Part shown: positions 1 through 19,560 of the stretch, piece by piece | Position numbering within the stretch: the first letter of the stretch is position 1 | Layout of the letters: each line of letters starts with the position of its first letter | DNA from: a virus | Length of the DNA stretch: 64,000 nt | IMG/VR virus record: IMGVR_UViG_3300045988_168437 | Direction: 5' to 3' (one strand) | Made by a program: the position numbers and the translations under genes | Notes under the pieces: generated by a model | Database searches by the model: none | Told to the model about the DNA's origin: nothing | The model's input: the letters and a program-made list of their open reading frames with translations, nothing else

Positions 1-2
1 AG

Positions 3-194
3 TTTATAAGCAGAGTACCATCTGGAATATATGGTGGTAAAAATGAAGACGGAGAAGAAGTTATAACAGTTGTATCTCAAGGATTTGGGATGACAATAAA
101 GACTAAACATCATGAGAAACCAAACTGGTGGGAATGTGTTGATTATGATGAACTTGGCTGCATGGAATGTGTAACATATGAAAGAGCAGATTAA
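3..194 (+). CDS. hypothetical protein, 3' fragment (gene starts upstream of window)
   Basis: Frame open from window edge to TAA 192-194; ends ...KPNWWECVDYDELGCMECVTYERAD*; co-oriented with downstream operon. Confidence 0.5.
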   Translation, partial: FISRVPSGIYGGKNEDGEEVITVVSQGFGMTIKTKHHEKPNWWECVDYDELGCMECVTYERAD

Positions 195-197
195 TTA

Positions 198-290
198 GAA
201 GGATAAATTCGAAACAGGTAGAATGAGGCAACTCATTTTACTTGTCTATAAGGTTAAGCTACTTATACTGACGAGATAGCTTAATCCTTC
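198..290 (+). ncRNA. type II hammerhead self-cleaving ribozyme (HH-1)
   Basis: Core CUGACGA 268-274 and GAAA 211-214; stem III 214-227/232-245 capped by GCAA tetraloop; GUC triplet 244-246 (predicted cleavage after C246); stem I 247-252/262-267; open stem II G275-C210, A276-U209, then 198-204/284-290; loop I 255-261 complementary to 277-283 (pseudoknot). Confidence 0.85.
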
Positions 291-312
291 AAAATGAAAG
301 GGGATAAAAAAG

Positions 313-840
313 ATGATGAAAAGAGAAAATGTTGTGAAATTTTTAGATTTATTACGTTCTGATGAAGTTAATGACGAAATAAAAGATTTATATATTGAAC
401 TATTAGAAGGACATATTCAAGATGCTCCAGGAACTCAAATTGAAATTATATTAGACTTAGACGGAGAAATTGATGAAAGATACTTTGTAGGAAATTCAAC
501 TAGAATGGATGTATATGAAGGCGATGCAATAGTTGTAGCAAGTATCAGATATGATGCAAACGTTACTTATGAAGACATGGGAGAATTATCAGATGCTTTA
601 GATGAATCTGAATATGAAAAATTCGTAGAATGGATATTTGCATACGAAGATATATCAGAAGATGATGAAAAAGAATATTTCGAAGAAAACTTTACATGGG
701 AAAATTTTTCAGAATTTAATCCTGATAGATTTAAAGAGCTAGAAGAAGAATCTTGGCAAGCAAATGTTGATTATTACGGATATGAAGAAATTGGGCAAAA
801 ATTATCTGAATGTATACAACAATTAGAAACTTTATTATAG
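313..840 (+). CDS. hypothetical acidic protein
   Basis: 175-aa ORF with SD-like aaagggga upstream; strongly D/E-rich; no family recognised. Confidence 0.6.
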   Translation: MMKRENVVKFLDLLRSDEVNDEIKDLYIELLEGHIQDAPGTQIEIILDLDGEIDERYFVGNSTRMDVYEGDAIVVASIRYDANVTYEDMGELSDALDESEYEKFVEWIFAYEDISEDDEKEYFEENFTWENFSEFNPDRFKELEEESWQANVDYYGYEEIGQKLSECIQQLETLL

Positions 841-856
841 GGGCAGCAATTGCTCC

Positions 857-913
857 TACTTTAAACCTACCAATGATGGTCCAAAGTCCATATGGAAAAA
901 GGTGATGGGAGTA
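857..913 (+). ncRNA. twister self-cleaving ribozyme (Tw-1, P1 type, no P3)
   Basis: P1 857-861/909-913; predicted cleavage U862/A863; P2 865-868/900-903; ACCAAUG linker; P4 876-879/888-891 with loop UCCAAAGU; 3' internal loop GAUGG 904-908. Nearly collinear with the rice Osa-1-4 twister as I recall it (..UAACACUGCCAAUGCCGGUCCCAAGCCCGGAUAAAAGUGGAGGG..). Confidence 0.8.
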
Positions 914-977
914 AATAAAGGCGAAGCTACTAAAATACTCGTCTATATATAAGAGTAGCAATTAAAAGGGGGTAAAA

Positions 978-1292
978 ATGAAGGTATATTTAGGGAATGC
1001 TTTTAGTTTACAAATGTTAGACACAACAAAGACTACAGATATAAAAGTAACACCAGTTGATGCATCAGTTGTAGCAAGTTCAGATTTTACATCAGTTATA
1101 GGTCATCCAGATACAGCTGCAGTAGTTTCAAACATCTTAGGAAAAGACGTAGCTTGTAATAGAGTTTCTGTTAGTTTAAGTAAAGGTGACATTTTATATG
1201 TAGCACAAGTTGTTGGTGGCAGACTTCCTGCTGGAGCTACCACTCTACCAGACGGATTTAGTTTAGTATTTTTAAAAGTTGTCATTCTATAA
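978..1292 (+). CDS. DUF1874 / STIV B116-like protein
   Basis: YLGNAFSLQML at N-terminus and IGHPDTAAVVSNILG...NRVSVSLSKGDILYV match the B116 pattern (FLTNAFSINML ... IGHDSTINLVNTL ... NRVEVKMNEGD) from memory; SD aaaaggggg. Confidence 0.75.
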   Translation: MKVYLGNAFSLQMLDTTKTTDIKVTPVDASVVASSDFTSVIGHPDTAAVVSNILGKDVACNRVSVSLSKGDILYVAQVVGGRLPAGATTLPDGFSLVFLKVVIL

Positions 1293-1357
1293 AAAGGTAG
1301 AAGGCTTATAGGAGTGTCTCAAACTCCTACATTATGTAAATGAAGGGAGAATTAAAA

Positions 1358-1495
1358 ATGAAAGTTAAAAAAGAAATTACAATTGAAGAAGAATTTGAAA
1401 TACATATGAAAAGCATGGAAGGGCATGTTTGCTATGGTTGCTCAGGTTGTAAGTTTGCTTACTATGGAGTTTGCCCATATGTTCAAGAGGGTTAA
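1358..1495 (+). CDS. small Cys-rich protein (45 aa)
   Basis: ATG 1358 preceded by SD gaagggaga; MKVKKEITIEEEFEIHMKSMEGHVCYGCSGCKFAYYGVCPYVQEG*; below ORF-track cutoff. Confidence 0.5.
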   Translation: MKVKKEITIEEEFEIHMKSMEGHVCYGCSGCKFAYYGVCPYVQEG

Positions 1496-1501
1496 TCCCT
1501 C

Positions 1502-1563
1502 TACTTTAAACTCACTTGACTAAGTCAAAAGGTCCAAAGTCCTTGAAAAGAGTGATGGGAGTA
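1502..1563 (+). ncRNA. twister self-cleaving ribozyme (Tw-2, with P3 hairpin)
   Basis: P1 1502-1506/1559-1563; predicted cleavage U1507/A1508; P2 1510-1513/1550-1553 (ACUC/GAGU versus ACCU/AGGU in Tw-1); extra P3 1516-1520/1524-1528; P4 1529-1532/1541-1544 (AAGG/CCUU versus AUGG/CCAU) with identical loop UCCAAAGU; GAUGG 1554-1558. Confidence 0.8.
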
Positions 1564-1583
1564 AATGAAAGGGGTAAAATGAT

Positions 1584-1859
1584 ATGAATAATTCTATTAA
1601 AAGATTAAAAGAAAAATTAATTGGAAAAGAATTCAAAGAAGAAGATTATAATAAAGAGTTAAATAATCTTGTAAAAGAATTTCATTTAGAGGCAAATACT
1701 TGTGATTTTGATTTTGACAGATTATATCACATTGGATATGAAGAAAAAGAAAATTGGGATGATGAATATGTTTGTAGTATACAAGTTAATTATATTCCTG
1801 TATATGATGAAAATGGATATCATGACTTTGATATCATAAAAATATTTGATGTGTTTTAA
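1584..1859 (+). CDS. hypothetical protein
   Basis: 91-aa ORF, SD aaagggg upstream. Confidence 0.6.
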   Translation: MNNSIKRLKEKLIGKEFKEEDYNKELNNLVKEFHLEANTCDFDFDRLYHIGYEEKENWDDEYVCSIQVNYIPVYDENGYHDFDIIKIFDVF

Positions 1860-1889
1860 TATAATTAAATCATATAGGGAGGTATGAAA

Positions 1890-2057
1890 ATGAGAACTTA
1901 CTTAGCAGATTATGAAGACGATAATTTTGAAACAATAATAGCGAATACAGATAATGAAGCTTACTTTGAAGCTCTTGACCATGAAGAAGAACATGGGACT
2001 TTATATAATCTTTTTGAAATTGATGATGACTACAATAAAATAAGAGAAGTTAAATAG
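1890..2057 (+). CDS. hypothetical small acidic protein (55 aa)
   Basis: ATG 1890, SD GGGAGG 1877-1882; MRTYLADYEDDNFETIIANTDNEAYFEALDHEEEHGTLYNLFEIDDDYNKIREVK*; stop TAG 2055-2057. Confidence 0.5.
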   Translation: MRTYLADYEDDNFETIIANTDNEAYFEALDHEEEHGTLYNLFEIDDDYNKIREVK

Positions 2058-2135
2058 AAGGCAAAATTCGAAACCGTGGTGGTCCACGGTCTGTAAGCAA
2101 TAGGCTACTTATACTGACGAGATAGCCTTGCCAAC
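2057..2135 (+). ncRNA. type II hammerhead self-cleaving ribozyme (HH-2)
   Basis: GAAA 2070-2073; stem III 2073-2079/2084-2090; GUC 2089-2091 (cleavage after C2091); stem I 2092-2097/2108-2113; CUGACGA 2114-2120; G2121-C2069; loop I 2102-2107 pairs with 2123-2128 (AGGCUA/UAGCCU versus AAGCUA/UAGCUU in HH-1). Confidence 0.85.
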
Positions 2136-2262
2136 AATAAAAAGGAAGGTAAGATAAAATAGCTATCAAGAACTCGTGAAAACGGGTGTTGAATAAATTA
2201 TCATTTTGGGAGAGGGTTGCCCTCTCCTATCCCCAATATAAATGGGAGAGAGGAGTATAATA

Positions 2263-2613
2263 ATGATAAATACTTATGCTTATGAAATAAAACCACATAT
2301 CTTTGACAGTATTATAGTTACTGTGAAAGATGATGATAATAACTATGTTGAATTATTAGCTATGAAAGATAAGACAATTGGGGATTATAGAACTTTTTTA
2401 CACGGTGAAGTAAATAGCACTATTTTCCAAAAAGATTATCGTAATAGTAAATATTATAAAAAGGTAGGCAGAGGTAGAATAAAGGACGAAAAAAGAACCC
2501 TAGATACAATTAGCAGATTAGTTGGGACAGGAAAACATATTATTCTTTTTCGTTTAGATAACTATATAAAAGATAATAATTTTGAAGGTGACATTAAAAT
2601 ATCATTTAAGTAA
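2263..2613 (+). CDS. hypothetical protein
   Basis: ORF track starts at 2242, but GGGAGAGAGGAG 2244-2255 looks like the SD for ATG 2263 (MINTYAYEIK...). Confidence 0.6.
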   Translation: MINTYAYEIKPHIFDSIIVTVKDDDNNYVELLAMKDKTIGDYRTFLHGEVNSTIFQKDYRNSKYYKKVGRGRIKDEKRTLDTISRLVGTGKHIILFRLDNYIKDNNFEGDIKISFK

Positions 2614-2623
2614 TATATATAAT

Positions 2624-2651
2624 AATCCCCTGATTGGGGGTTATTTTTTTG
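2624..2651 (+). terminator. intrinsic terminator ending the ribozyme operon
   Basis: Stem 2624-2630/2636-2642 (AAUCCCC/GGGGGUU) followed by AUUUUUUUG. Confidence 0.75.
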
Positions 2652-2683
2652 CTTAAAAATAATTTATTTTTTACAGAAATCAC

Positions 2684-2712
2684 TTGCAAGTTTTATATCA
2701 AAATGCTATAAT
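2684..2712 (+). promoter_or_regulatory. sigma70-type promoter
   Basis: TTGCAA 2684-2689, 17-bp spacer, TGcTATAAT with -10 at 2707-2712. Confidence 0.65.
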
Positions 2713-2734
2713 TAAATCAAAGGCGGTGAATAAT

Positions 2735-3025
2735 ATGAAAAATATTTCATTAGTGCAACTTAGAAAAGATTACAATTATCTAAATAGTAAAATTTCTTAT
2801 CATGTGTTAAATGAAGATGAACTATTAAATGAAGTTGTTCCTAAAATGTTGAGCGGGAAAATGGATTTAAAAAACTTTATTCTGTGGGCAATAAAAGATA
2901 CTATAACATATGTAGTAGAAGACAGAGAGGCAATGAATACAAAAGAAGACATTGAATTTATTGAATCAGATAAAAGATTTAAAAGGATTCTTGACAGATA
3001 CGATATTGATATAGAGGAGGTTTAA
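2735..3025 (+). CDS. hypothetical protein (tandem paralog A)
   Basis: ATG 2735 after SD aaaggcggtga; upstream part of the track ORF overlaps the promoter. Similar to the next ORF (LRKDYNYL.. / LRADFEYL.., NFILWAIKD / QFLLWSIWD). Confidence 0.6.
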   Translation: MKNISLVQLRKDYNYLNSKISYHVLNEDELLNEVVPKMLSGKMDLKNFILWAIKDTITYVVEDREAMNTKEDIEFIESDKRFKRILDRYDIDIEEV

Positions 3026-3026
3026 T

Positions 3027-3347
3027 ATGAATATAGAGCAACAATTAAAAGGATTAGAAATAAAACAATCTACAACTACTCTAAGAGCAGATTTTGAATA
3101 TTTAGATGATAATATCAATTGGTATCTAATTGATGAAGCAATATTAGTAACAGAAATTGCTCCAGGATTGCAATATGGAACACTAAATCTAAAACAATTT
3201 TTGCTTTGGAGCATCTGGGACATTATTGCTTTTGTTATTATAGAAAATCATGACGAAGATGATGTCAATTTTGTTAAAACAGACAGTAGGGTTAAAAGAA
3301 TCATAAGAAAATATGGTTTAAAAGAAAGTATAGAAAAATTACTATAG
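3027..3347 (+). CDS. hypothetical protein (tandem paralog B)
   Basis: 106-aa ORF, SD gaggagg; paralog of 2735-3025. Confidence 0.6.
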   Translation: MNIEQQLKGLEIKQSTTTLRADFEYLDDNINWYLIDEAILVTEIAPGLQYGTLNLKQFLLWSIWDIIAFVIIENHDEDDVNFVKTDSRVKRIIRKYGLKESIEKLL

Positions 3348-3352
3348 AAAGG

Positions 3353-4150
3353 ATGACAAAGATGTTAAAAAATAGTTACTGGAATCATACAGGAAAATAT
3401 CAAAATGAAAGTGAAGAATTAGAAAAATTAATACCTCACTGGGGTAGAACTACTAACCCTTATATGAACTTATTCATAGTTGCAAGTCAATTATACTATG
3501 ATGTTTATAACAATGGTGGTTGTAATATCGAGGATTGTTATGTTGATGATATTGAAAAATATATAAAACCTTATGCAAAGGAATTAGAAGGAATTAATTT
3601 TAAATGTTCATTAAGAACAATAGTTAATAATCTTATGAACGAAGAAAAATTAGAAAATTTCTTAAATTCCGTTATGGAATTTATTTCTGACAAAGACTTG
3701 TCTTATCGTAAATATTTAGCTTATTTTGATAGTAACAATCACCTTCTTTCTTATGATAAAAAAGAGGGTTATTATGAAATAAGTTTTGGTGAAAAAGAAG
3801 AATTTGAAAGATGGATAAACAACAGAAAAAATTCTGGGTATAAATTAATAGGAGGTATAGTGATGAAATATAGAGTTTGGTGGATACCGCAAATAGGTTA
3901 TGATGGTACTTTTTATGTACCTGTAAATTCTCCAGAAGAAGGACTAAAAATAATGTCAGTATTAGGTGCATATGATTTATTTCAATTAAAGAATAATATT
4001 AAACCAGACTTTTCAAATACAGGTGGCTTAGAAGTCTTTGAAGACGGAGAATGGGTAGATTACTATGATGAAGACGGCAGAGATATAGATGAACATTTTG
4101 AAGAAGATGTGAATATGCAAGATTTTATAGAAAAAGTTTATAATTTTTAG
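3353..4150 (+). CDS. hypothetical protein, possibly two fused modules
   Basis: 265-aa ORF; strong in-frame internal SD AGGAGG 3850-3855 plus ATG 3863 (MKYRVWWIPQ...). Confidence 0.6.
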   Translation: MTKMLKNSYWNHTGKYQNESEELEKLIPHWGRTTNPYMNLFIVASQLYYDVYNNGGCNIEDCYVDDIEKYIKPYAKELEGINFKCSLRTIVNNLMNEEKLENFLNSVMEFISDKDLSYRKYLAYFDSNNHLLSYDKKEGYYEISFGEKEEFERWINNRKNSGYKLIGGIVMKYRVWWIPQIGYDGTFYVPVNSPEEGLKIMSVLGAYDLFQLKNNIKPDFSNTGGLEVFEDGEWVDYYDEDGRDIDEHFEEDVNMQDFIEKVYNF

Positions 4151-4163
4151 AGGGGGTTTTAAA

Positions 4164-4466
4164 ATGAAGGTTTTAATTAAGAATATAGGAGAAAACACTA
4201 AAATTACAGATATTGAAAATGATTTACAATCATTGCAAAATCTAGTAGGAGGGTATATTGAGGCATTACCATTAACTAAAGATGTATTATTAATATGTAA
4301 TGAAGAAGGAAAGCTAAAAGGACTTCCTGTAAATTTCAACATAGTCATAAATGGAAAGATAGAATCTATCGTAGGGAATGTATTTTTCGTAGGAAAAAAT
4401 GATTCTGATTTCGATAGTCTCACTAATGAACAAATCATTATATTACAAGATTATCTTGATAATTAA
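4164..4466 (+). CDS. DUF3846-like protein
   Basis: MKVLIKNIGENTKITDIENDLQSLQNLVGGYIEALPL...ICNEEGKLKGLPVN fits the DUF3846 pattern seen on phages and conjugative elements (recollection). Confidence 0.6.
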   Translation: MKVLIKNIGENTKITDIENDLQSLQNLVGGYIEALPLTKDVLLICNEEGKLKGLPVNFNIVINGKIESIVGNVFFVGKNDSDFDSLTNEQIIILQDYLDN

Positions 4467-4500
4467 TATTCCAAAATAAAAAATAAAATATATAAGGGAT

Positions 4501-4531
4501 AGAGCAGCTTAATTGCTGCTTTATTTTTTTA
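4501..4531 (+). terminator. intrinsic terminator
   Basis: Stem AGCAGC 4503-4508 / GCUGCU 4515-4520, then UUAUUUUUUU. Confidence 0.7.
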
Positions 4532-4551
4532 TAAAAAATTCCATATAATAG

Positions 4552-4580
4552 TTGACATACTTACATAAAAGTATTAATAT
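4552..4580 (+). promoter_or_regulatory. sigma70-type promoter
   Basis: TTGACA 4552-4557, 17 bp, TAATAT 4575-4580. Confidence 0.6.
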
Positions 4581-4633
4581 ATAAGTATAGTTAGTTTTAC
4601 ACAAAAACAAAATTTCTAAAAGGGGATGAAGAT

Positions 4634-5368
4634 ATGTTTACACTAGGCAACAGTAAAATTAAAACGGCACTAAAGAATATATCACAAAGGAAGTATGATT
4701 GTGATGTGTTTAAAATGGAAGTAAATAGTATATCAGAAATATGTAAAAAAGAATTTCAAGCAGAATATAGTAAGATGGAAAAATTCTCTTTCAACAAAGG
4801 ATATCTTGAATTTACATTTAAAGACCAAGCAGTAATTGGTTATTTTGAAATACAAGGATTTAATATAAGTTTAATTATTGCTCCCACAAATAATGTTTAT
4901 GGCAGTAGTTTTATCTTTAATGTAAATATAAAAGATATGCAAGGAGAAGTTGGATATGTAAAGAATTCTTTATTAATATTAGTGGAAGAAGATGAATCTT
5001 TGCATAAGAAAATTGGTGGAATTGGGAAAGCATTATGCGAAGGAATTTTAGTTGCAAATTATTTAGCTCAAACAAATCCAACAATAATAAAAGACAATGA
5101 AACTAGGATTGTTAAAAAGTCAAATAAAAAGGGAAAACATAAAAATAAAACTATCAGGAAAATAAACCTTACTAATATAAGACATGTAAAAGAATACAGT
5201 AATACTAATATAAATACAGATAAAAGAAATTACGAAAGACATACTGAATCTTGGACTGTAAGAGGGCATTACAGACATTATAAAAGTGGTAAGGTAGTTT
5301 GGATAGAACCATCTACTAGAGGGACTGGAAAACCTCAAGGAAAAGTTTACAATATAAATGTTGAATAA
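4634..5368 (+). CDS. hypothetical protein with basic C-terminal motif (paralog of 57981-58715)
   Basis: 244 aa; C-terminus RHTESWTVRGHYRHYKSGKVVWIEPSTRG matches RRTESWKVKGFWRTYKNGKKVWIKPSVRG in the other copy. Confidence 0.65.
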   Translation: MFTLGNSKIKTALKNISQRKYDCDVFKMEVNSISEICKKEFQAEYSKMEKFSFNKGYLEFTFKDQAVIGYFEIQGFNISLIIAPTNNVYGSSFIFNVNIKDMQGEVGYVKNSLLILVEEDESLHKKIGGIGKALCEGILVANYLAQTNPTIIKDNETRIVKKSNKKGKHKNKTIRKINLTNIRHVKEYSNTNINTDKRNYERHTESWTVRGHYRHYKSGKVVWIEPSTRGTGKPQGKVYNINVE

Positions 5369-5381
5369 GGGGGACTAAAAC

Positions 5382-5756
5382 ATGGTAGAAGTAAATAAAT
5401 TATACAGATGCAGACAAGATATAGTTTTAAATCCAAGTACAGTTGATAAAATCAATATATCATTAGACTTAGATATGGGAAATACAGTTATGGCAACTAT
5501 TGATGATGTTGGGATATATAAACCTATAACAATTTCAGAATTTAATTTAGCAAAAGAAATACTTAAGAAAAAAGCAGAGCAGCTAATTATAGAGAATAAA
5601 GAAGTGGACCATGTAATATACTCTATAGTAGAAACTGACTATGAAGGTTATTGTAATCGAATAATTATATGTCTTATTCCTCTTACTCATGAAGAATATG
5701 TTAGAAGAATGAGACTTTTAAATGACACAACAAAGTGTTTTGTATTAAATAGATAA
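5382..5756 (+). CDS. hypothetical protein
   Basis: 124-aa ORF, SD aaggggga. Confidence 0.6.
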   Translation: MVEVNKLYRCRQDIVLNPSTVDKINISLDLDMGNTVMATIDDVGIYKPITISEFNLAKEILKKKAEQLIIENKEVDHVIYSIVETDYEGYCNRIIICLIPLTHEEYVRRMRLLNDTTKCFVLNR

Positions 5757-5770
5757 TAGGAGGGTTTTAT

Positions 5771-6718
5771 ATGAGTAATTGTTATAAAGAGTTTTTAGGA
5801 TATATGAAAGATGTGCAAGGAGTTGATAATAAAACTCTAGTATGTTACGAAAAAAATTTAAAAGACTTTAACGAGTATATTTTTGGCGGGAAAGCAGATA
5901 CTACTTTTGAAGAAATAGCAAACTTAAAAGTATCTGAAATACAAACAAAATGGCTCAATAGACTTAAAGATGAAAAAGGATATAAATCAAATACCTTAAA
6001 TAACCGCATAATTACACTTACAAGACTTTACACATATATGGTAGGAGAAAACTATACTACTGTAAATAAAGGCAAACTAATACCTCATTACAAAGGCGAC
6101 AAGAAAGTTAAAAAAGAAATATCAACTGATGATTATATATCTTTATTAGAAGAACTTAGAAAAAATAGAGATAAAAACTTCACTAGTCTTAGAAATTGGT
6201 TTATGGTAGAATTCTTTTTAGCAACTGGACTTCGTAGAGCGGAAATCATAGCATTAGACATCGAAGATGTAAATATTCTTACTGGTGAAATAAAAGTCAC
6301 TAGAAAATATGACGAAGGTGTTAAATTTGGTAAAGAAAGAATAGAGTATCTTCCAGAAATACTTTTAGATGATTTACACTATTATCTTTCACGCAGATTA
6401 GACATAGAAACAGATAGTGATGCTTTCTTTATTTCTACTCATAAGAAAAGAATGTGTGCATCTAATATCAATAAGTTGCTTAATAAGATAGCAGATAATA
6501 ACGGCATGAAAATACACCCTCATATGCTTAGAGCGGGATTTTCAAGCAATACCATTAATAGTGGTAGGGTAGAATCATATGAAGTCGCAGAAGCGATGGG
6601 ACACAGTAATAAGACTACTACTTTGAACTATTATCATAAGTCTAATACAGAAGTATTAAAGAAAGTTGCCAACAGTAATATGATATTTGACAAAAGACAA
6701 GATGATAATGTAATATAA
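5771..6718 (+). CDS. tyrosine recombinase / integrase (XerC/D-like)
   Basis: LATGLRRAEIIALDIEDV (Arg box), HPHMLRAGF (HxLR), GHSNKTTTLNYYH (GH..Y) catalytic signature. Confidence 0.85.
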   Translation: MSNCYKEFLGYMKDVQGVDNKTLVCYEKNLKDFNEYIFGGKADTTFEEIANLKVSEIQTKWLNRLKDEKGYKSNTLNNRIITLTRLYTYMVGENYTTVNKGKLIPHYKGDKKVKKEISTDDYISLLEELRKNRDKNFTSLRNWFMVEFFLATGLRRAEIIALDIEDVNILTGEIKVTRKYDEGVKFGKERIEYLPEILLDDLHYYLSRRLDIETDSDAFFISTHKKRMCASNINKLLNKIADNNGMKIHPHMLRAGFSSNTINSGRVESYEVAEAMGHSNKTTTLNYYHKSNTEVLKKVANSNMIFDKRQDDNVI

Positions 6719-6751
6719 AAATAGTATAAATAAAACATAGAGGTGATTAAT

Positions 6752-7441
6752 ATGATGAAAAACAAAAACTCAATTGGGTTCTATATAGAAAGTTTAGGAT
6801 TCGATTTAGATAAAGTTTGGGATTTTGAAAAGAATACAAAAAATCCTGATGAAGTGACAAAAATGTCAAATGTTGAAATATGGTTAAAATGTGTTAATCA
6901 TGATTATCACGGCAGTTATAAAACAACTGCTAAGGCTTACTATTATTCCTCTTCTACAGAGGGATATGGTTGCCCTTACTGTTCTAAAATAAGTCCAAAT
7001 AGAAAGGTCCACATACTTGATAGTTTTGCATATAAACATCAAGATTGGGCAAAATGGTGGGATAGTTCTAATAAGAAAACTCCTTTTGAATGCAAAGGAA
7101 ATGAACAACATGAGACATTTAAATTTACTTGTCCTGTTTGTGGATATAGTTTTGAAAGTACATTAATGTTCCTTTCCGATTTAAAATTTAAACATGTATG
7201 TGAATCAGATAAAACAAGAGGTAAGGGGTATGATGAATATCAAGACTATAGAAAACAACAACAGTTTGAAAGGGCAGCAAAGCATATAAAGAAATCTGGT
7301 AAAGGAGAATGGGAACTTATAGAATTCAATGGAACAAACAGACCTGGTACTGTTAAGCATCATTGTGGAGCAACTAAGACAGTTACTAGAATATCTTCTT
7401 TATATAATAAAAATATAGTTTGTCCTAATTGTGATAAATAG
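6752..7441 (+). CDS. zinc-ribbon protein (DUF4379-like repeats)
   Basis: ATG 6752 after SD GAGGTGA; W.KC...H.......GCPYCS plus CPVCG...CPNC motifs. Confidence 0.6.
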   Translation: MMKNKNSIGFYIESLGFDLDKVWDFEKNTKNPDEVTKMSNVEIWLKCVNHDYHGSYKTTAKAYYYSSSTEGYGCPYCSKISPNRKVHILDSFAYKHQDWAKWWDSSNKKTPFECKGNEQHETFKFTCPVCGYSFESTLMFLSDLKFKHVCESDKTRGKGYDEYQDYRKQQQFERAAKHIKKSGKGEWELIEFNGTNRPGTVKHHCGATKTVTRISSLYNKNIVCPNCDK

Positions 7442-7470
7442 TTGACATACTTATAAAAAAATAGTAAGAT
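7442..7470 (+). promoter_or_regulatory. sigma70-type promoter
   Basis: TTGACA 7442-7447, 17 bp, TAAGAT 7465-7470; 160-nt leader follows. Confidence 0.55.
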
Positions 7471-7631
7471 AAAAAAAAGAGGTAGATGTCGAACCCATCT
7501 ACCTTAAACAATATTGATATAATCAATCTTTAGAATTGTTTTTAGAGTTAATCTTTTTAAATTGTATTTTTATAATACCATAAAAGGATTGATTATGTCA
7601 AGAAGTACTGCTATTTTTTAAGGAGAATTTT

Positions 7632-8588
7632 ATGAAAAAAAAGGAAGAGAAATTAGAACACTTAAGAGAATACGGCATAGTCAATTTAAATGACGGCAGA
7701 TTAGTATTTTCGGCTTGTCATGATGTATCAAAAGAAGAAAATCTTACGATAATTAACGATTTAAACAAAGAAGACAAAGAAAAGAGAAACAAAATATTAG
7801 AATTCAAAAGATTTAATAGAAAGTTAGGAGGATTTTATTTTATGGTTTACAGTAATAACAAAGCTTTATTTTCTGAAATTCCAGAAGTTAAAAATGGGGA
7901 CTTACCTAAATTGCTTTATTTAGCCTCATACATGGATTATGAGAATAGACATGGGAATAAGATATGTAAGGTAATAGGAGGAAATAAAAAAGTCCCTATG
8001 CCTAAGAGAGAAGTTTTTAAGTTAATAAGATTTGCAGATTCAACAAAGGCAAAAAATTGGTTTTTAAAAATGGAGAAATTAGGACTATTATATATTTATG
8101 ATGATTCAGTAGAACTAAATGAAAAATATTTTATTAAAGGCTGTACTGGAACAGAATATAAATATAGTCGAGTTTATATTAACACGATAAGGGGATTATA
8201 TACTAATTGTGATTTAAGAAAACATAGACAAATTGGCTTAATATTAAGACTATTGCCTTATATGAATATAAATTCAAATATACTTTGTAGCACTAGTGAA
8301 GATGAAATTCACAAACTAGATAGATATGAAATTGCAGAAATACTTGATGTAAAAGACGATAAGAGAAATTTATCTAAAATGATAAGAACTCTTTTAAATC
8401 TTAAAGTTGATTTTGAAAATTATAAATTGCAGGTATTTAAATTAGTAAAAGTATATGACACCAATTTTGTTGAAGAATATTTTGTAGTCAATCCAATTTT
8501 AGCATATAAAGGAGATGACTATTATAAGATGCAAGAAATCCTAAAAACATATTTCTTTGATGAAGATGATATTAAAATAATAAGATAA
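7632..8588 (+). CDS. Rep-like replication initiator candidate (paralog 1)
   Basis: 318 aa; paralog of 16073-17008 (LGGFYFMVY/LGGFIHVCY, LLYLASYMDYEN/LIYLATYIDYNN, YFVVNPILAYKGDD/YFITNPLLIWKGND); followed by an iteron array. The Rep function is inferred from context only. Confidence 0.5.
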   Translation: MKKKEEKLEHLREYGIVNLNDGRLVFSACHDVSKEENLTIINDLNKEDKEKRNKILEFKRFNRKLGGFYFMVYSNNKALFSEIPEVKNGDLPKLLYLASYMDYENRHGNKICKVIGGNKKVPMPKREVFKLIRFADSTKAKNWFLKMEKLGLLYIYDDSVELNEKYFIKGCTGTEYKYSRVYINTIRGLYTNCDLRKHRQIGLILRLLPYMNINSNILCSTSEDEIHKLDRYEIAEILDVKDDKRNLSKMIRTLLNLKVDFENYKLQVFKLVKVYDTNFVEEYFVVNPILAYKGDDYYKMQEILKTYFFDEDDIKIIR

Positions 8589-17176: not shown

Positions 17177-18142
17177 ATGAATAAATTTATAAAAGAAATT
17201 GAGAAAACAAATAAAATAGCCTTATTAACTTACGGAGGCAGCTATGCATATGGAACAAATGTAGAAGGCTCTGATATTGATTTAAGGGGTATATTTCTAC
17301 CTTCTAAATTAGAAATATTATCTATGACATCAGGAGACAAAGCATTGACTGACAATGAAACAGATACAGTTATGTACCCTTTAAAACAAATGATTCAACT
17401 GTTATGTAATGCAAATCCAAATACAATTGAAGTTTTAGGCACGAGAGAGCAAGATATATTCATAATATCAGAGGAAGGGCAAATGCTTAGGAAAAATGTA
17501 AATTTATTTTTAACTAAGAGTAAAGTTCATTCTGCCTTTTTAGGATATGCACAAAATCAATTAAGAAGACTTAAAAATGCAATAGCTCGAGATGATTTAG
17601 AACAGGCAGAAAAAGAGAAACATATTTTAAAATCAGTTGAAAAGAGAATGTCTGCTTTCGAACAGTCATATGCTCCAATAACAAATGGAAAATTAAAGCT
17701 GCACATAGAAAAATCAAATAAAGAAGATTTAGAAGAGGAAATTATGATAGACATGTGCTTAGAAAATTATCCATTACGAGACTGTAAAAAAATGTTAGAT
17801 GAAATGGCAATAACCTTAAAACAATATGGAAAATTAAATCACAGAAATAAAAAGAAAGACGAACAACATCTTCTGAAACATTCTATGCACCTTGTGAGAC
17901 TTTATTTAATGGGAATTGATATATTACAAGGAAATGGAATTAAAACTTACAGAGAGGACGACAGAGAGTTATTATTAGATATTAGAAATGGCAAATATTC
18001 TTATGAACAAATTTATAATATGGCAGAAAAATTAGAAGAAGAATTTAAAGATGTACTGCAAACAAGTAAATTGCCTGAAAAATTAGATTATAACAAAATA
18101 AATAACCTTGTTGCAGAAATAAATAAACAAATGTTAAAATAA
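17177..18142 (+). CDS. nucleotidyltransferase (Pol-beta superfamily, RlaP/PF10127-like)
   Basis: N-terminal TYGGSYAYGTNVEGSDIDLRGIF (GS...SD.D NTase motif). Confidence 0.7.
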   Translation: MNKFIKEIEKTNKIALLTYGGSYAYGTNVEGSDIDLRGIFLPSKLEILSMTSGDKALTDNETDTVMYPLKQMIQLLCNANPNTIEVLGTREQDIFIISEEGQMLRKNVNLFLTKSKVHSAFLGYAQNQLRRLKNAIARDDLEQAEKEKHILKSVEKRMSAFEQSYAPITNGKLKLHIEKSNKEDLEEEIMIDMCLENYPLRDCKKMLDEMAITLKQYGKLNHRNKKKDEQHLLKHSMHLVRLYLMGIDILQGNGIKTYREDDRELLLDIRNGKYSYEQIYNMAEKLEEEFKDVLQTSKLPEKLDYNKINNLVAEINKQMLK

Positions 18143-18217: not shown

Positions 18218-18304
18218 ATGAGAATGACAAGTAGAAGATTCAATAATATAGTTAAGAAAATGATTAAGGAGTTGATAGAAGATGATACTTGCAAAGAAAG
18301 TTAG
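18218..18304 (+). CDS. possible 28-aa basic peptide overlapping the tnpB start
   Basis: ATG 18218 after SD aaaggggg; MRMTSRRFNNIVKKMIKELIEDDTCKES*. Confidence 0.25.
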   Translation: MRMTSRRFNNIVKKMIKELIEDDTCKES

Positions 18305-19397
18305 ATTGCGCCCAAGTGAACTACAAGAAGAAAAATTATGGAAATCAGTAGGGACTGCAAGATTTATTTATAATTGGACTTTAAATAGGCAAGAAGAAAA
18401 TTATAAAGGTGGTGGTAAATTCATACCTGATAGTGTTCTTAGAAAAGAAATAACTCAATTAAAGAAAACTGACTTAAGTTGGTTAAATGAAGTATCTAAT
18501 AATGTTGCAAAACAAGCTGTAAAAGATGCCTGTGATTCATATAAAAGATTCTTTAAAGGATTGTCAGGTAAACCTAGATTTAAAAGTAGGAAAAGAAGTA
18601 AGAAGTCTTTTTATCATGACAATGTTAAACTTAAAGTTAAAGATAATAAATTAGTTAAGATTGAAAAAGTTGGGTGGATAAAAACCAATGAACAATTACC
18701 TATTGGAGTTAAATATACCAATCCGAGAATTAGTTATGATAATAAGTATTGGTATTTATCTGTAGGAATTGAACAGGAAGGAATCCAAGAAGAATTAACA
18801 GAAATATCATTAGGAATAGATTTAGGGTTGAAAAACTTAGCAATTTGTTCCGATGGTGCAATATATAAAAATATAAATAAAACTTGTACAGTCAAAAAAA
18901 TCGAAAAGAAACTAAAAAGATTACAAAGACAAATAAGTAGAAAGTATGAAAAAAATAAAAAAGGAAAGGAGTATGTCAAAACTAAAAATATTATAAAACT
19001 TGAAAAGCAGATACAACAAGTACATAGAAGGTTGACTAACATTAGAAATAACTATCTTCATCAAACTACGACAAGTATAGTGAAAACCAAACCATACAGA
19101 GTTGTAATAGAAGATTTAAGTGTTTCTAATATGATGAAAAATAAACATTTATCTGATGCTATAAGGAAACAAGGATTCTATGAATTCAGAAGACAACTTG
19201 AATACAAGTGTAAATTTAGAGGAATTAAGTTAGTCGTAGCAGATAGATTTTATCCATCGTCAAAAATTTGTAGCCAATGTGGAGAGATTAAGAAGGATTT
19301 AAAGCTATCCGATAGAGTATACAAGTGTGATTGTGGGCTTGTGATTGATAGAGATTTAAATGCAAGTATTAATCTTTCTAAATATAAATTAGCATAA
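18282..19397 (+). CDS. tnpB: TnpB (IS200/IS605-family OrfB, RNA-guided nuclease)
   Basis: KKVRLRPSELQEEKLWKSVGTARFIYNWTL N-terminus; RuvC triad candidates GIDLGLKNLA, VIEDLSVSNM, DRDLNASINL; zinc ribbon CSQCGE...YKCDCG. Confidence 0.85.
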   Translation: MILAKKVRLRPSELQEEKLWKSVGTARFIYNWTLNRQEENYKGGGKFIPDSVLRKEITQLKKTDLSWLNEVSNNVAKQAVKDACDSYKRFFKGLSGKPRFKSRKRSKKSFYHDNVKLKVKDNKLVKIEKVGWIKTNEQLPIGVKYTNPRISYDNKYWYLSVGIEQEGIQEELTEISLGIDLGLKNLAICSDGAIYKNINKTCTVKKIEKKLKRLQRQISRKYEKNKKGKEYVKTKNIIKLEKQIQQVHRRLTNIRNNYLHQTTTSIVKTKPYRVVIEDLSVSNMMKNKHLSDAIRKQGFYEFRRQLEYKCKFRGIKLVVADRFYPSSKICSQCGEIKKDLKLSDRVYKCDCGLVIDRDLNASINLSKYKLA

Positions 19398-19560
19398 TAT
19401 CATTAATAAGATAATGCTAATATGTAGGATGTGTTGTATCCGAATTTACGCCCTTGGAGAGTTATATCAAACGAAAGTAGGTTGTTATTTATAATTTCCA
19501 AAATCGAATTCGTAGAACAGGGAATTAAACAAGATTTATAGATATTTATAGATTTTTGGC
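19280..19560 (+). ncRNA. candidate omega/reRNA scaffold of TnpB (boundaries not determined)
   Basis: By analogy with characterised TnpB loci, the guide RNA overlaps the 3' end of tnpB and the right end. Hairpins are visible at 19390-19420 and 19494-19527. No right-end boundary could be fixed by eye. Confidence 0.3.

Follow-up and report, generated by a model that had tools for sequence, protein, structure and literature searches.

A predicted type-P1 twister ribozyme with A-U pairs in both pseudoknots, located in a ribozyme array of a human-gut phage

Genomic setting of the ribozyme array

The analysed stretch of DNA, 64 kb in length and referred to as the window, stems from a large uncultured human-gut phage. 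Its genes include those for a DnaB-like helicase, a RecJ-like exonuclease, a DnaE-like polymerase, NrdD and an integrase, and the DnaE-like polymerase showed 35-38% identity to Geobacillus virus E3 and C. difficile phiCD211-type phages. The first 6 kb of the window are an array of small genes on one strand, and four spacers within the first 2.2 kb hold, in this order, a hammerhead ribozyme, the two twister copies Tw-1 and Tw-2, and a second hammerhead (Table 1). That twisters occur together with hammerheads and phage genes has been described before (PMC6765202).

Tw-2 occupies an 88-nt spacer between two small genes of the same strand. A stop codon (1493-1495) lies on its 5' side, and on its 3' side a ribosome binding site (RBS) AGGGG (1570-1574) is followed by an ATG (1584-1586). 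For the proteins encoded by the two flanking genes (51 amino acids with CxxC motifs and 91 amino acids) no family match was obtained. Other small genes near the ribozymes (978-1292 and 3353-4466, plus strand) encode STIV B116-like (PF08960) and DUF3846 proteins and a protein with a GP17 superinfection-exclusion domain. With its intergenic spacer, small phage genes and hammerhead neighbours, the setting of Tw-2 is typical for its class.

Both hammerheads are complete type II elements, in which GAAA, the stem III hairpin, UC, the stem I hairpin and CUGACGA occur along with a pseudoknot between loop I and stem II. In the element at 199-289, GAAAC is followed by a stem III hairpin of 14 bp, stem I is UAUAAG/CUUAUA, stem II is AAGGAU/AUCCUU and the loop-I pseudoknot is UAAGCU:AGCUUA; its fold has a z-score of -6.6. 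The element at 2060-2132 has ACCGUGG/CCACGGU as stem III and AGGCUA:UAGCCU as pseudoknot. Neither of them was listed by the Rfam scan. A third hammerhead with a compensatory stem III was seen in relatives, 5' of the position where the window starts (L032, about 525-606).

Directly 5' of an RBS and 3' of Tw-1, a further conserved motif of the form UAAAGGCGAA-stem-N5-6-CUCGUCU-N8-9-stem' was observed (916-962, plus strand). It also occurs in related contigs with different genes downstream (L001 2822, L002 2942, L015 2956, L016 1121 and L032 2442), and its stem exists in four compensatory versions (GCUACU/AGUAGC, GUUACC/GGUAAC, GUUGAC/GUCAAC and CCCAC/GUGGG). GGCGA and UCGUC of this motif could pair into an H-type pseudoknot. 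No Rfam family matched it, and the loose pattern AAGGCGAA...CUCGUCU gave chance matches only, among the matches listed.

Two more RNA-related loci were detected elsewhere in the window. Within 18282-19524 (plus strand) lies a TnpB-like ORF of 371 amino acids with OrfB_IS605 and Cas12f1-like TNB domains, and 3' of it a RAGATH-18 RNA (19451-19524) scored 67.6 bits, above gathering. The two probably represent an IS607-type TnpB inserted in the phage, together with its guide reRNA (PMC11061315). The ORF at 17177-18142 (plus strand) carries an RlaP 'RNA repair pathway' nucleotidyltransferase domain (PF10127), which may have a bearing on the RNA ends that ribozymes produce.

Table 1. Ribozymes of the array and the parts of Tw-1 and Tw-2 (positions in the window)
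Feature	Position	Strand	Sequence	Basis and remarks
Type II hammerhead	199-289	+		hand and regex search; cut C246/U247; spacer before ORF 313..840
Tw-1 twister, with P0, without P3	840-913 (ribozyme 857-913)	+		Rfam twister-P1; minimum free energy (MFE) fold reproduces helices
Tw-1 P0	840-845/851-856	+	GGGGCA/UGCUCC	directly 5' of P1
Tw-1 P1	857-861/909-913	+		
Tw-1 predicted cleavage site	U862/A863	+		
Tw-1 P2	865-868/900-903	+		
Tw-1 L2	869-870	+	AC	
Tw-1 linker		+	CAAUG	
Tw-1 P4	876-879/888-891	+		
Tw-1 L4	880-887	+		
Tw-1 L1, 3' strand	904-908	+	GAUGG	
Tw-2 P0 hairpin	1487-1491/1497-1501	+	GAGGG/CCCUC, loop UUAAU	adjoins P1; read from sequence
Tw-2 P1, 5' strand	1502-1506	+	UACUU	pairs with 1559-1563; Rfam alignment, isolated MFE
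Tw-2 L1, 5' strand	1507-1509	+	UAA	matches the model's invariant UAA in the alignment
Tw-2 predicted scissile phosphate	U1507/A1508	+		corresponds to U6/A7 of Osa-1-4; definition PMC6154101, PMC5408937
Tw-2 P2, 5' strand	1510-1513	+	ACUC	pairs with 1550-1553; Rfam alignment, MFE
Tw-2 L2 dinucleotide	1514-1515	+	AC	T2 with G1539, U1540; consensus GC:GC; definition PMC5408937
Tw-2 P3 hairpin	1516-1528 (stem 1516-1520/1524-1528)	+	UUGAC/UAA/GUCAA	optional stem; sequence, Rfam, MFE
Tw-2 P4	1529-1532/1541-1544	+	AAGG/CCUU	Rfam alignment; 100% paired in alignment A4
Tw-2 L4	1533-1540	+	UCCAAAGU	closed by P4; base roles from PMC5408937
Tw-2 L2, 3' strand	1545-1549	+	GAAAA	Rfam alignment; AUAAA in L031, L032
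Tw-2 P2, 3' strand	1550-1553	+	GAGU	Rfam alignment, pair counts
Tw-2 L1, 3' strand	1554-1558	+	GAUGG	Rfam alignment; G1554 = catalytic guanine G45, A1555 = A46 (PMC5113685)
Tw-2 P1, 3' strand	1559-1563	+	GAGUA	Rfam alignment
Type II hammerhead	2060-2132	+		hand and regex search; cut C2091/U2092

Class assignment and scoring of Tw-2

Tw-2 comprises 62 nt (1502-1563, plus strand) with the type-P1 twister fold: P1, P2 and P4 follow each other in the type-P1 order, together with the optional stems P0 and P3, and the termini lie in P1. In E-value mode, the Rfam model RF03160 (twister-P1, clan CL00120) aligned end to end (model positions 1-68) to 1503-1562 with 46.6 bits and matched Tw-1 (858-912) with 34.4 bits. 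The E-value of Tw-2 over the whole 64-kb window was 3.5e-7; a local Rfam scan gave 4.7e-9 for Tw-2 and 1.6e-5 for Tw-1. Neither copy reaches the gathering score of 67.2 bits, which is a database cut-off and not a property of the ribozyme, and at gathering thresholds the scan of the window reported RAGATH-18 alone and no twister. Other Rfam families in the local scan at E <= 10 were noise only, and twister-sister was not listed. A generic descriptor consisting of the L4 loop, P4 and T1 and T2 complementarity recovered both sites; its three further matches had AT-only T1 triplets and all lay within listed ORFs.

In the rice twister, for which the numbering and mutational data of Kobori and Yokobayashi are used here (PMC5113685), the scissile phosphate is located between U6 and A7 (PMC6154101, PMC5113685, PMC5408937). 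Pseudoknot T1 joins L4 25-27 to L1 47-49, and T2 joins L2 13-14 to L4 30-31 (PMC5408937). Both are formed by Watson-Crick pairs in Tw-2, T1 by C1534-G1558, C1535-G1557 and A1536-U1556, and T2 by A1514-U1540 and C1515-G1539. The conserved active-site and scaffold bases are also in place. All bases named as critical in the literature (A7, A8, G23-C32, U24, A28, A29, G45 and A46; PMC5408937, PMC5113685) have their equivalents in A1508, A1509, G1532-C1541, U1533, A1537, A1538, G1554 and A1555. In L4, C1534, C1535 and A1536 serve T1, U1533 and A1538 correspond to the conserved U-A pair, and A1537 to A28.

The first, sequence-only reading had described Tw-2 as a twister cleaving at 1507/1508. Its class assignment, helix boundaries and P3 position all match the twister-P1 alignment, and the cleavage position agrees with this alignment and with U6/A7 of the rice numbering (PMC6154101, PMC5113685). 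The strands that it gave as common to both copies were found as stated, GGTCCAAAGTCC (878 and 1531) and GTGATGGGAGTAAAT (902 and 1552) each occurring exactly twice in the 64-kb window; for CTACTTTAAAC the sequence was right, but the strand starts at 1501 (856 in Tw-1) and not at 1502.

Four upper-case consensus positions differ in Tw-2 (G13 to A, C27 to A, C31 to U and G47 to U). Since all of them fall in T1 or T2 pairs, they amount to two compensatory swaps, A1536-U1556 and A1514-U1540. The low Rfam score is partly due to these A-U pairs in place of G-C in both pseudoknots, because a covariance model without pseudoknots penalises compensatory swaps in T1 and T2. A score below gathering is the norm for phage twisters: only 2 of 22 twister-P1 matches at 20 viral loci taken from the census described below reached 67.2 bits, and several viral twisters with canonical pseudoknots at the same loci scored 38-65 bits.

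Folding energies contributed little. The helices of Tw-2 are short and AU-rich, and its folding energy is no better than in shuffles, with a z-score of -0.33; this value and a second z-score of -0.49 are uninformative. The MFE structure of isolated Tw-2 contains P1-P4; with the flanks included, the nested-only MFE favours a different interior fold.

Covariation in the pseudoknots

Pairing was counted in an alignment (A4) of 10 distinct sequences, cut to fixed-length segments, which comprised both copies of the window, relatives and the rice reference. The sequence of the latter (Osa-1-4) was checked against the numbering of PMC5113685 only. The twister at L001 1195-1258 was left out of the pair counts, as a deletion of one base makes its P2/T2 register ambiguous. 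In A4, whose sequences were hand-trimmed to fit the proposed structure and which represents few independent lineages, 96.7% of the cells form standard pairs, in comparison to 74% in shuffles and 35-48% with slid partners. Pairing amounts to 94-100% in the helices, 100% in T1 and 95% in T2. Double changes were found in 15 of the 18 pairs, among them pairs of both pseudoknots, all five pairs of P1 and all four of P2.

As an independent census, viral contigs were searched with a degenerate pattern in which L2 was unrestricted and positions 27, 47 and 31 could be A/C, G/U and C/U, respectively. Among 123 twister-like viral matches, positions 27 and 47 were C-G in 93, A-U in 26 and mismatched in four, so that 119 of 123 form a Watson-Crick pair. 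For the matches with parsable P1 and P2, the combination of L2 with position 31 was GC-C in 56, AC-U in 12 and another one in four (68 of 72 consistent); U31 occurred with AC in 12 of 13 cases and C31 with GC in 56 of 59. The 53 unique parsed sequences included 27 canonical ones, 10 with the T1 swap, eight with the T2 swap and three with both. Two of the three double-swapped sequences are found in L074 and L099, contigs unrelated to this phage. Subtypes with an A-U-swapped pseudoknot account for about one fifth of the pattern matches. Exhaustive mutagenesis of the rice twister showed that the ribozyme keeps its activity when other Watson-Crick pairs take the place of C14-G30 in T2 or of most T1 pairs (PMC5113685).

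Optional stems and relationship of the two copies

In both copies a short GC-rich hairpin, P0, adjoins P1; that of Tw-2 was overlooked in the sequence-only reading. The 30 nt 5' of Tw-2 fold with -7.2 kcal/mol, P0 is retained in a 100-nt fold, and the UAA stop codon of ORF 1340..1495 lies within its loop. Equivalent hairpins with other stem sequences precede most of the related twisters. P0, P3 and P5 are carried by 21%, 78% and 1% of the annotated twisters, respectively (PMC6154101, citing Roth 2014). The optional 5-bp stem P3 is present where it had been proposed; its description as an insertion does not hold, as P3 is the majority state (78%, PMC6154101). By this measure Tw-2 is assigned to the commoner form with P3 and Tw-1 to the rarer form without it. 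In L032 the P3 loop is UAAA, and this change of loop length leaves the stem untouched.

Tw-1 and Tw-2 have the same P1, L1 with its 3' strand, L4 and 3' flank (AAAU), which marks the two as paralogues within this phage lineage. P2 and P4 differ in the compensatory manner claimed earlier: ACUC/GAGU of Tw-2 (1510-1513/1550-1553) stands against ACCU/AGGU of Tw-1, i.e. two pairs swapped on both sides, and AAGG/CCUU (1529-1532/1541-1544) against AUGG/CCAU, with one such swap. A Tw-2-type sequence (2758-2820) lies at the position of Tw-1 in the related contig L001. The comparison indicates that the copies were duplicated or exchanged between spacers and subsequently diverged with preservation of the structure. 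Selection on structure, which had been proposed from the two copies, is supported by the compensatory swaps, which extend to the pseudoknots that had not been discussed there and that were maintained through A-U swaps. The contrast with duplication drawn at the same time needs qualification: the copies are paralogues, and a Tw-2-type copy occupies the Tw-1 site of L001.

A covariance model of our own (R1), built from an alignment of four sequences, scored Tw-1, which was absent from its training, with 52.5 bits. A full-length MAFFT alignment (A1) misaligned Tw-1 and L001_1195.

Relatives and decay of the ribozyme

Over 3.8 kb, identity to the human-gut metagenome contig OLOX01000258.1 amounts to 99.6%; two others show 96.5% and 92% identity. 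Within these three close relatives, Tw-2 is changed only in the loop of P3, in the 3' linker of L2 or at one P1 pair. More distant IMG/VR contigs contain syntenic twisters with CUA:UAG and GC:GC pseudoknots (L002/L015 type, L009); the twister at L001 3409 has CCA:UGG and GC:GC, and that at L001 1195 probably CGC:GCG and AG:CU. Megablast of positions 1-8000 against GenBank phages gave no match, and a protein-based metagenome scan yielded only 18 loci, of which most of the distant ones are without a twister. When a variant pattern was run over genome contigs, the three matches (in GC-rich Acidimicrobiaceae and Alphaproteobacteria) were dismissed as chance, as R1 does not match them.

Decay does occur in this phage group. 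In the L014 relative, C14A breaks T2, so some copies may be dead. Three further elements, L022 552-615 (minus strand), L026 2818-2881 and L025 7102-7165, have a twister-like P1, UAA and GAUGG (UGCUU UAA ... GAUGG AAGCA), and the GUCCAAAG loop is absent from them. They lie about 600 nt 3' of a bona fide twister and may be decayed twisters or a rearranged form.

Matches below threshold to the HDV-like ribozyme of F. prausnitzii (gathering 44) were observed in L032 (121-184, 38.6 bits), in another spacer upstream of the window start, and in L009 (2832-2905, 30.8 bits), upstream of the B116-like gene, where other loci have a twister. In the latter case one ribozyme class may have been replaced by another at the same site.

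Alternative explanations

Judged by its sequence and fold, Tw-2 is a genuine but ordinary type-P1 twister, for which cleavage is predicted. Three other explanations were weighed against this. It is improbable that Tw-2 is a decayed relic with a recognisable fold, whose pseudoknots, weakened by A-U pairs, and short AU-rich helices no longer allow cleavage and which now acts only as a structured spacer or is neutral. The score below gathering, the insignificant z-scores, the competing folds brought in by the flanks and the decay seen in L014 and in the L4-less remnants of L022, L025 and L026 would fit such a relic. However, the catalytic and tertiary-contact bases are all intact, and every helix difference, whether from the consensus or between the copies, is compensatory. 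Viral twisters often belong to the same A-U subtypes, the rice ribozyme stayed active after base-pair swaps in T1 and T2 (PMC5113685), and most viral twister-P1 matches stay under gathering as well, including those with canonical pseudoknots.

It is even less probable that the copies are recent duplicates drifting apart, in which the twister likeness of the variable parts was inherited and not selected. The identity of P1, L1, L4, the L1 3' strand and the AAAU flank and the Tw-2-type sequence at the Tw-1 site of L001 speak for this; as the sequence of P1 is not conserved across twisters in general, an identical P1 indicates duplication or gene conversion within the genome. Yet the three differing helix pairs changed on both sides and still pair, single changes do not occur in the helices, the optional P3 site is precisely where the lengths differ, and orthologues at 92% overall DNA identity vary in loop or linker bases only. 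That Tw-2 is a chance resemblance, belongs to another RNA class (e.g. twister-sister) or is a cluster of protein-binding hairpins can hardly be credited at all. AT-rich phage DNA does contain many weak hairpins, and the loop sequence of twister-sister resembles that of twister (PMC5408937), but an E-value of 3.5e-7 over the 64-kb window was obtained for one of two copies, both pseudoknots, which twister-sister does not possess (PMC5408937, PMC6154101), are present, and apart from noise no other Rfam family appeared at E <= 10. The intact core, the census and the fact that the helix changes are exclusively compensatory speak against each of the three explanations.

Proposed mechanism and significance

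The best overall explanation, to which we assign a probability of about 0.85, is that Tw-2 is a P1-type twister that cuts a polycistronic phage mRNA during transcription. Sequence, fold-level match, covariation and context are what the analysis shows; from them we infer catalysis, end chemistry and biological purpose. Most likely, Tw-2 cleaves itself co-transcriptionally at U1507/A1508. The RNA would fold as the polycistronic transcript emerges, and L4 would dock on L1 via T1 (C1534-G1558, C1535-G1557, A1536-U1556) and on L2 via T2 (A1514-U1540, C1515-G1539). The 2'-OH of U1507 would then attack the adjacent phosphate, with G1554 and A1508 acting as G45 and A7 do in rice. On the upstream mRNA, the P0 hairpin and UACUUU with a 2',3'-cyclic phosphate would form the 3' end; the first base of the downstream mRNA would be A1508 with a 5'-OH, and the compact ribozyme fold would lie 7 nt 5' of its RBS. 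Together with Tw-1 and the two hammerheads, Tw-2 would cut the early-gene transcript into units that differ in stability and translation. Processing of polycistronic transcripts is the hypothesis held in the field (PMC6765202).

A more far-reaching idea, which we regard as unlikely, is that P0, ribozyme and 5'-UTR hairpin form exchangeable 'punctuation cassettes' that move between gene boundaries, with cleavage perhaps coupled to translation termination. The succession of hammerhead, twister, twister and hammerhead in four consecutive spacers and the Tw-2-type sequence at the Tw-1 site of L001 would fit such cassettes. The coupling idea derives from the stop codon within the P0 loop, since a terminating ribosome must melt P0. 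The alternative pairing that a translation-coupled switch needs, between the 3' strand of P0 and GGGAG, was rejected as the main model: it is a 9-bp helix in the MFE of Tw-1 and only about four weak pairs in Tw-2.

Thousands of twisters are already known, and Tw-2 adds one to them. Why twisters and hammerheads lie between small phage genes is a question dating from 2014, for which this locus is a compact natural test bed. It combines four ribozymes of two classes in four spacers within 2.2 kb, and every one of them has hairpins, a stop codon and an RBS next to it. Moreover, the Rfam twister-P1 model cannot take pseudoknot covariation into account, and its cut-off misses Tw-2 and most of the sampled phage twisters, which leaves a blind spot in annotation.

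Comparison with known ribozymes

The type II hammerheads of bacteria and phages share the genomic niche and the presumed role of Tw-2, whereas their fold and active site are unrelated. Twister-sister resembles Tw-2 in its stem-loop scaffold and, vaguely, in the sequence of the P4 loop. In contrast to Tw-2, in which T1 and T2 are present and covary and whose UAA strand matches twister, it lacks both pseudoknots, and its cut lies in the opposite strand of the internal loop (PMC5408937); Tw-2 is therefore not a member of this class.

The rice ribozyme Osa-1-4 (PDB 4OJI) has the core positions U6, A7, A8, G45 and A46 and the L4 scaffold in common with Tw-2, and shares with Tw-1 the design without P3 and the CAAU linker after L2. 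It differs by its GC-rich helices, its CCC:GGG and GC:GC pseudoknots, the lack of P0 and its eukaryotic origin.

The closest likeness is that to the type-P1 twisters with P3 of RF03160, with which Tw-2 shares the order P1, L1 UAA, P2, L2, P3, P4/L4, L2', P2', L1' GANGG and P1', the two pseudoknots, the U-A cleavage dinucleotide, the optional P0, and phage genes and hammerheads in the neighbourhood. The differences lie in its AU-rich helices and in the A-U pairs at 27-47 of T1, where RF03160 has C-G, and at 13-31 of T2, where it has G-C.
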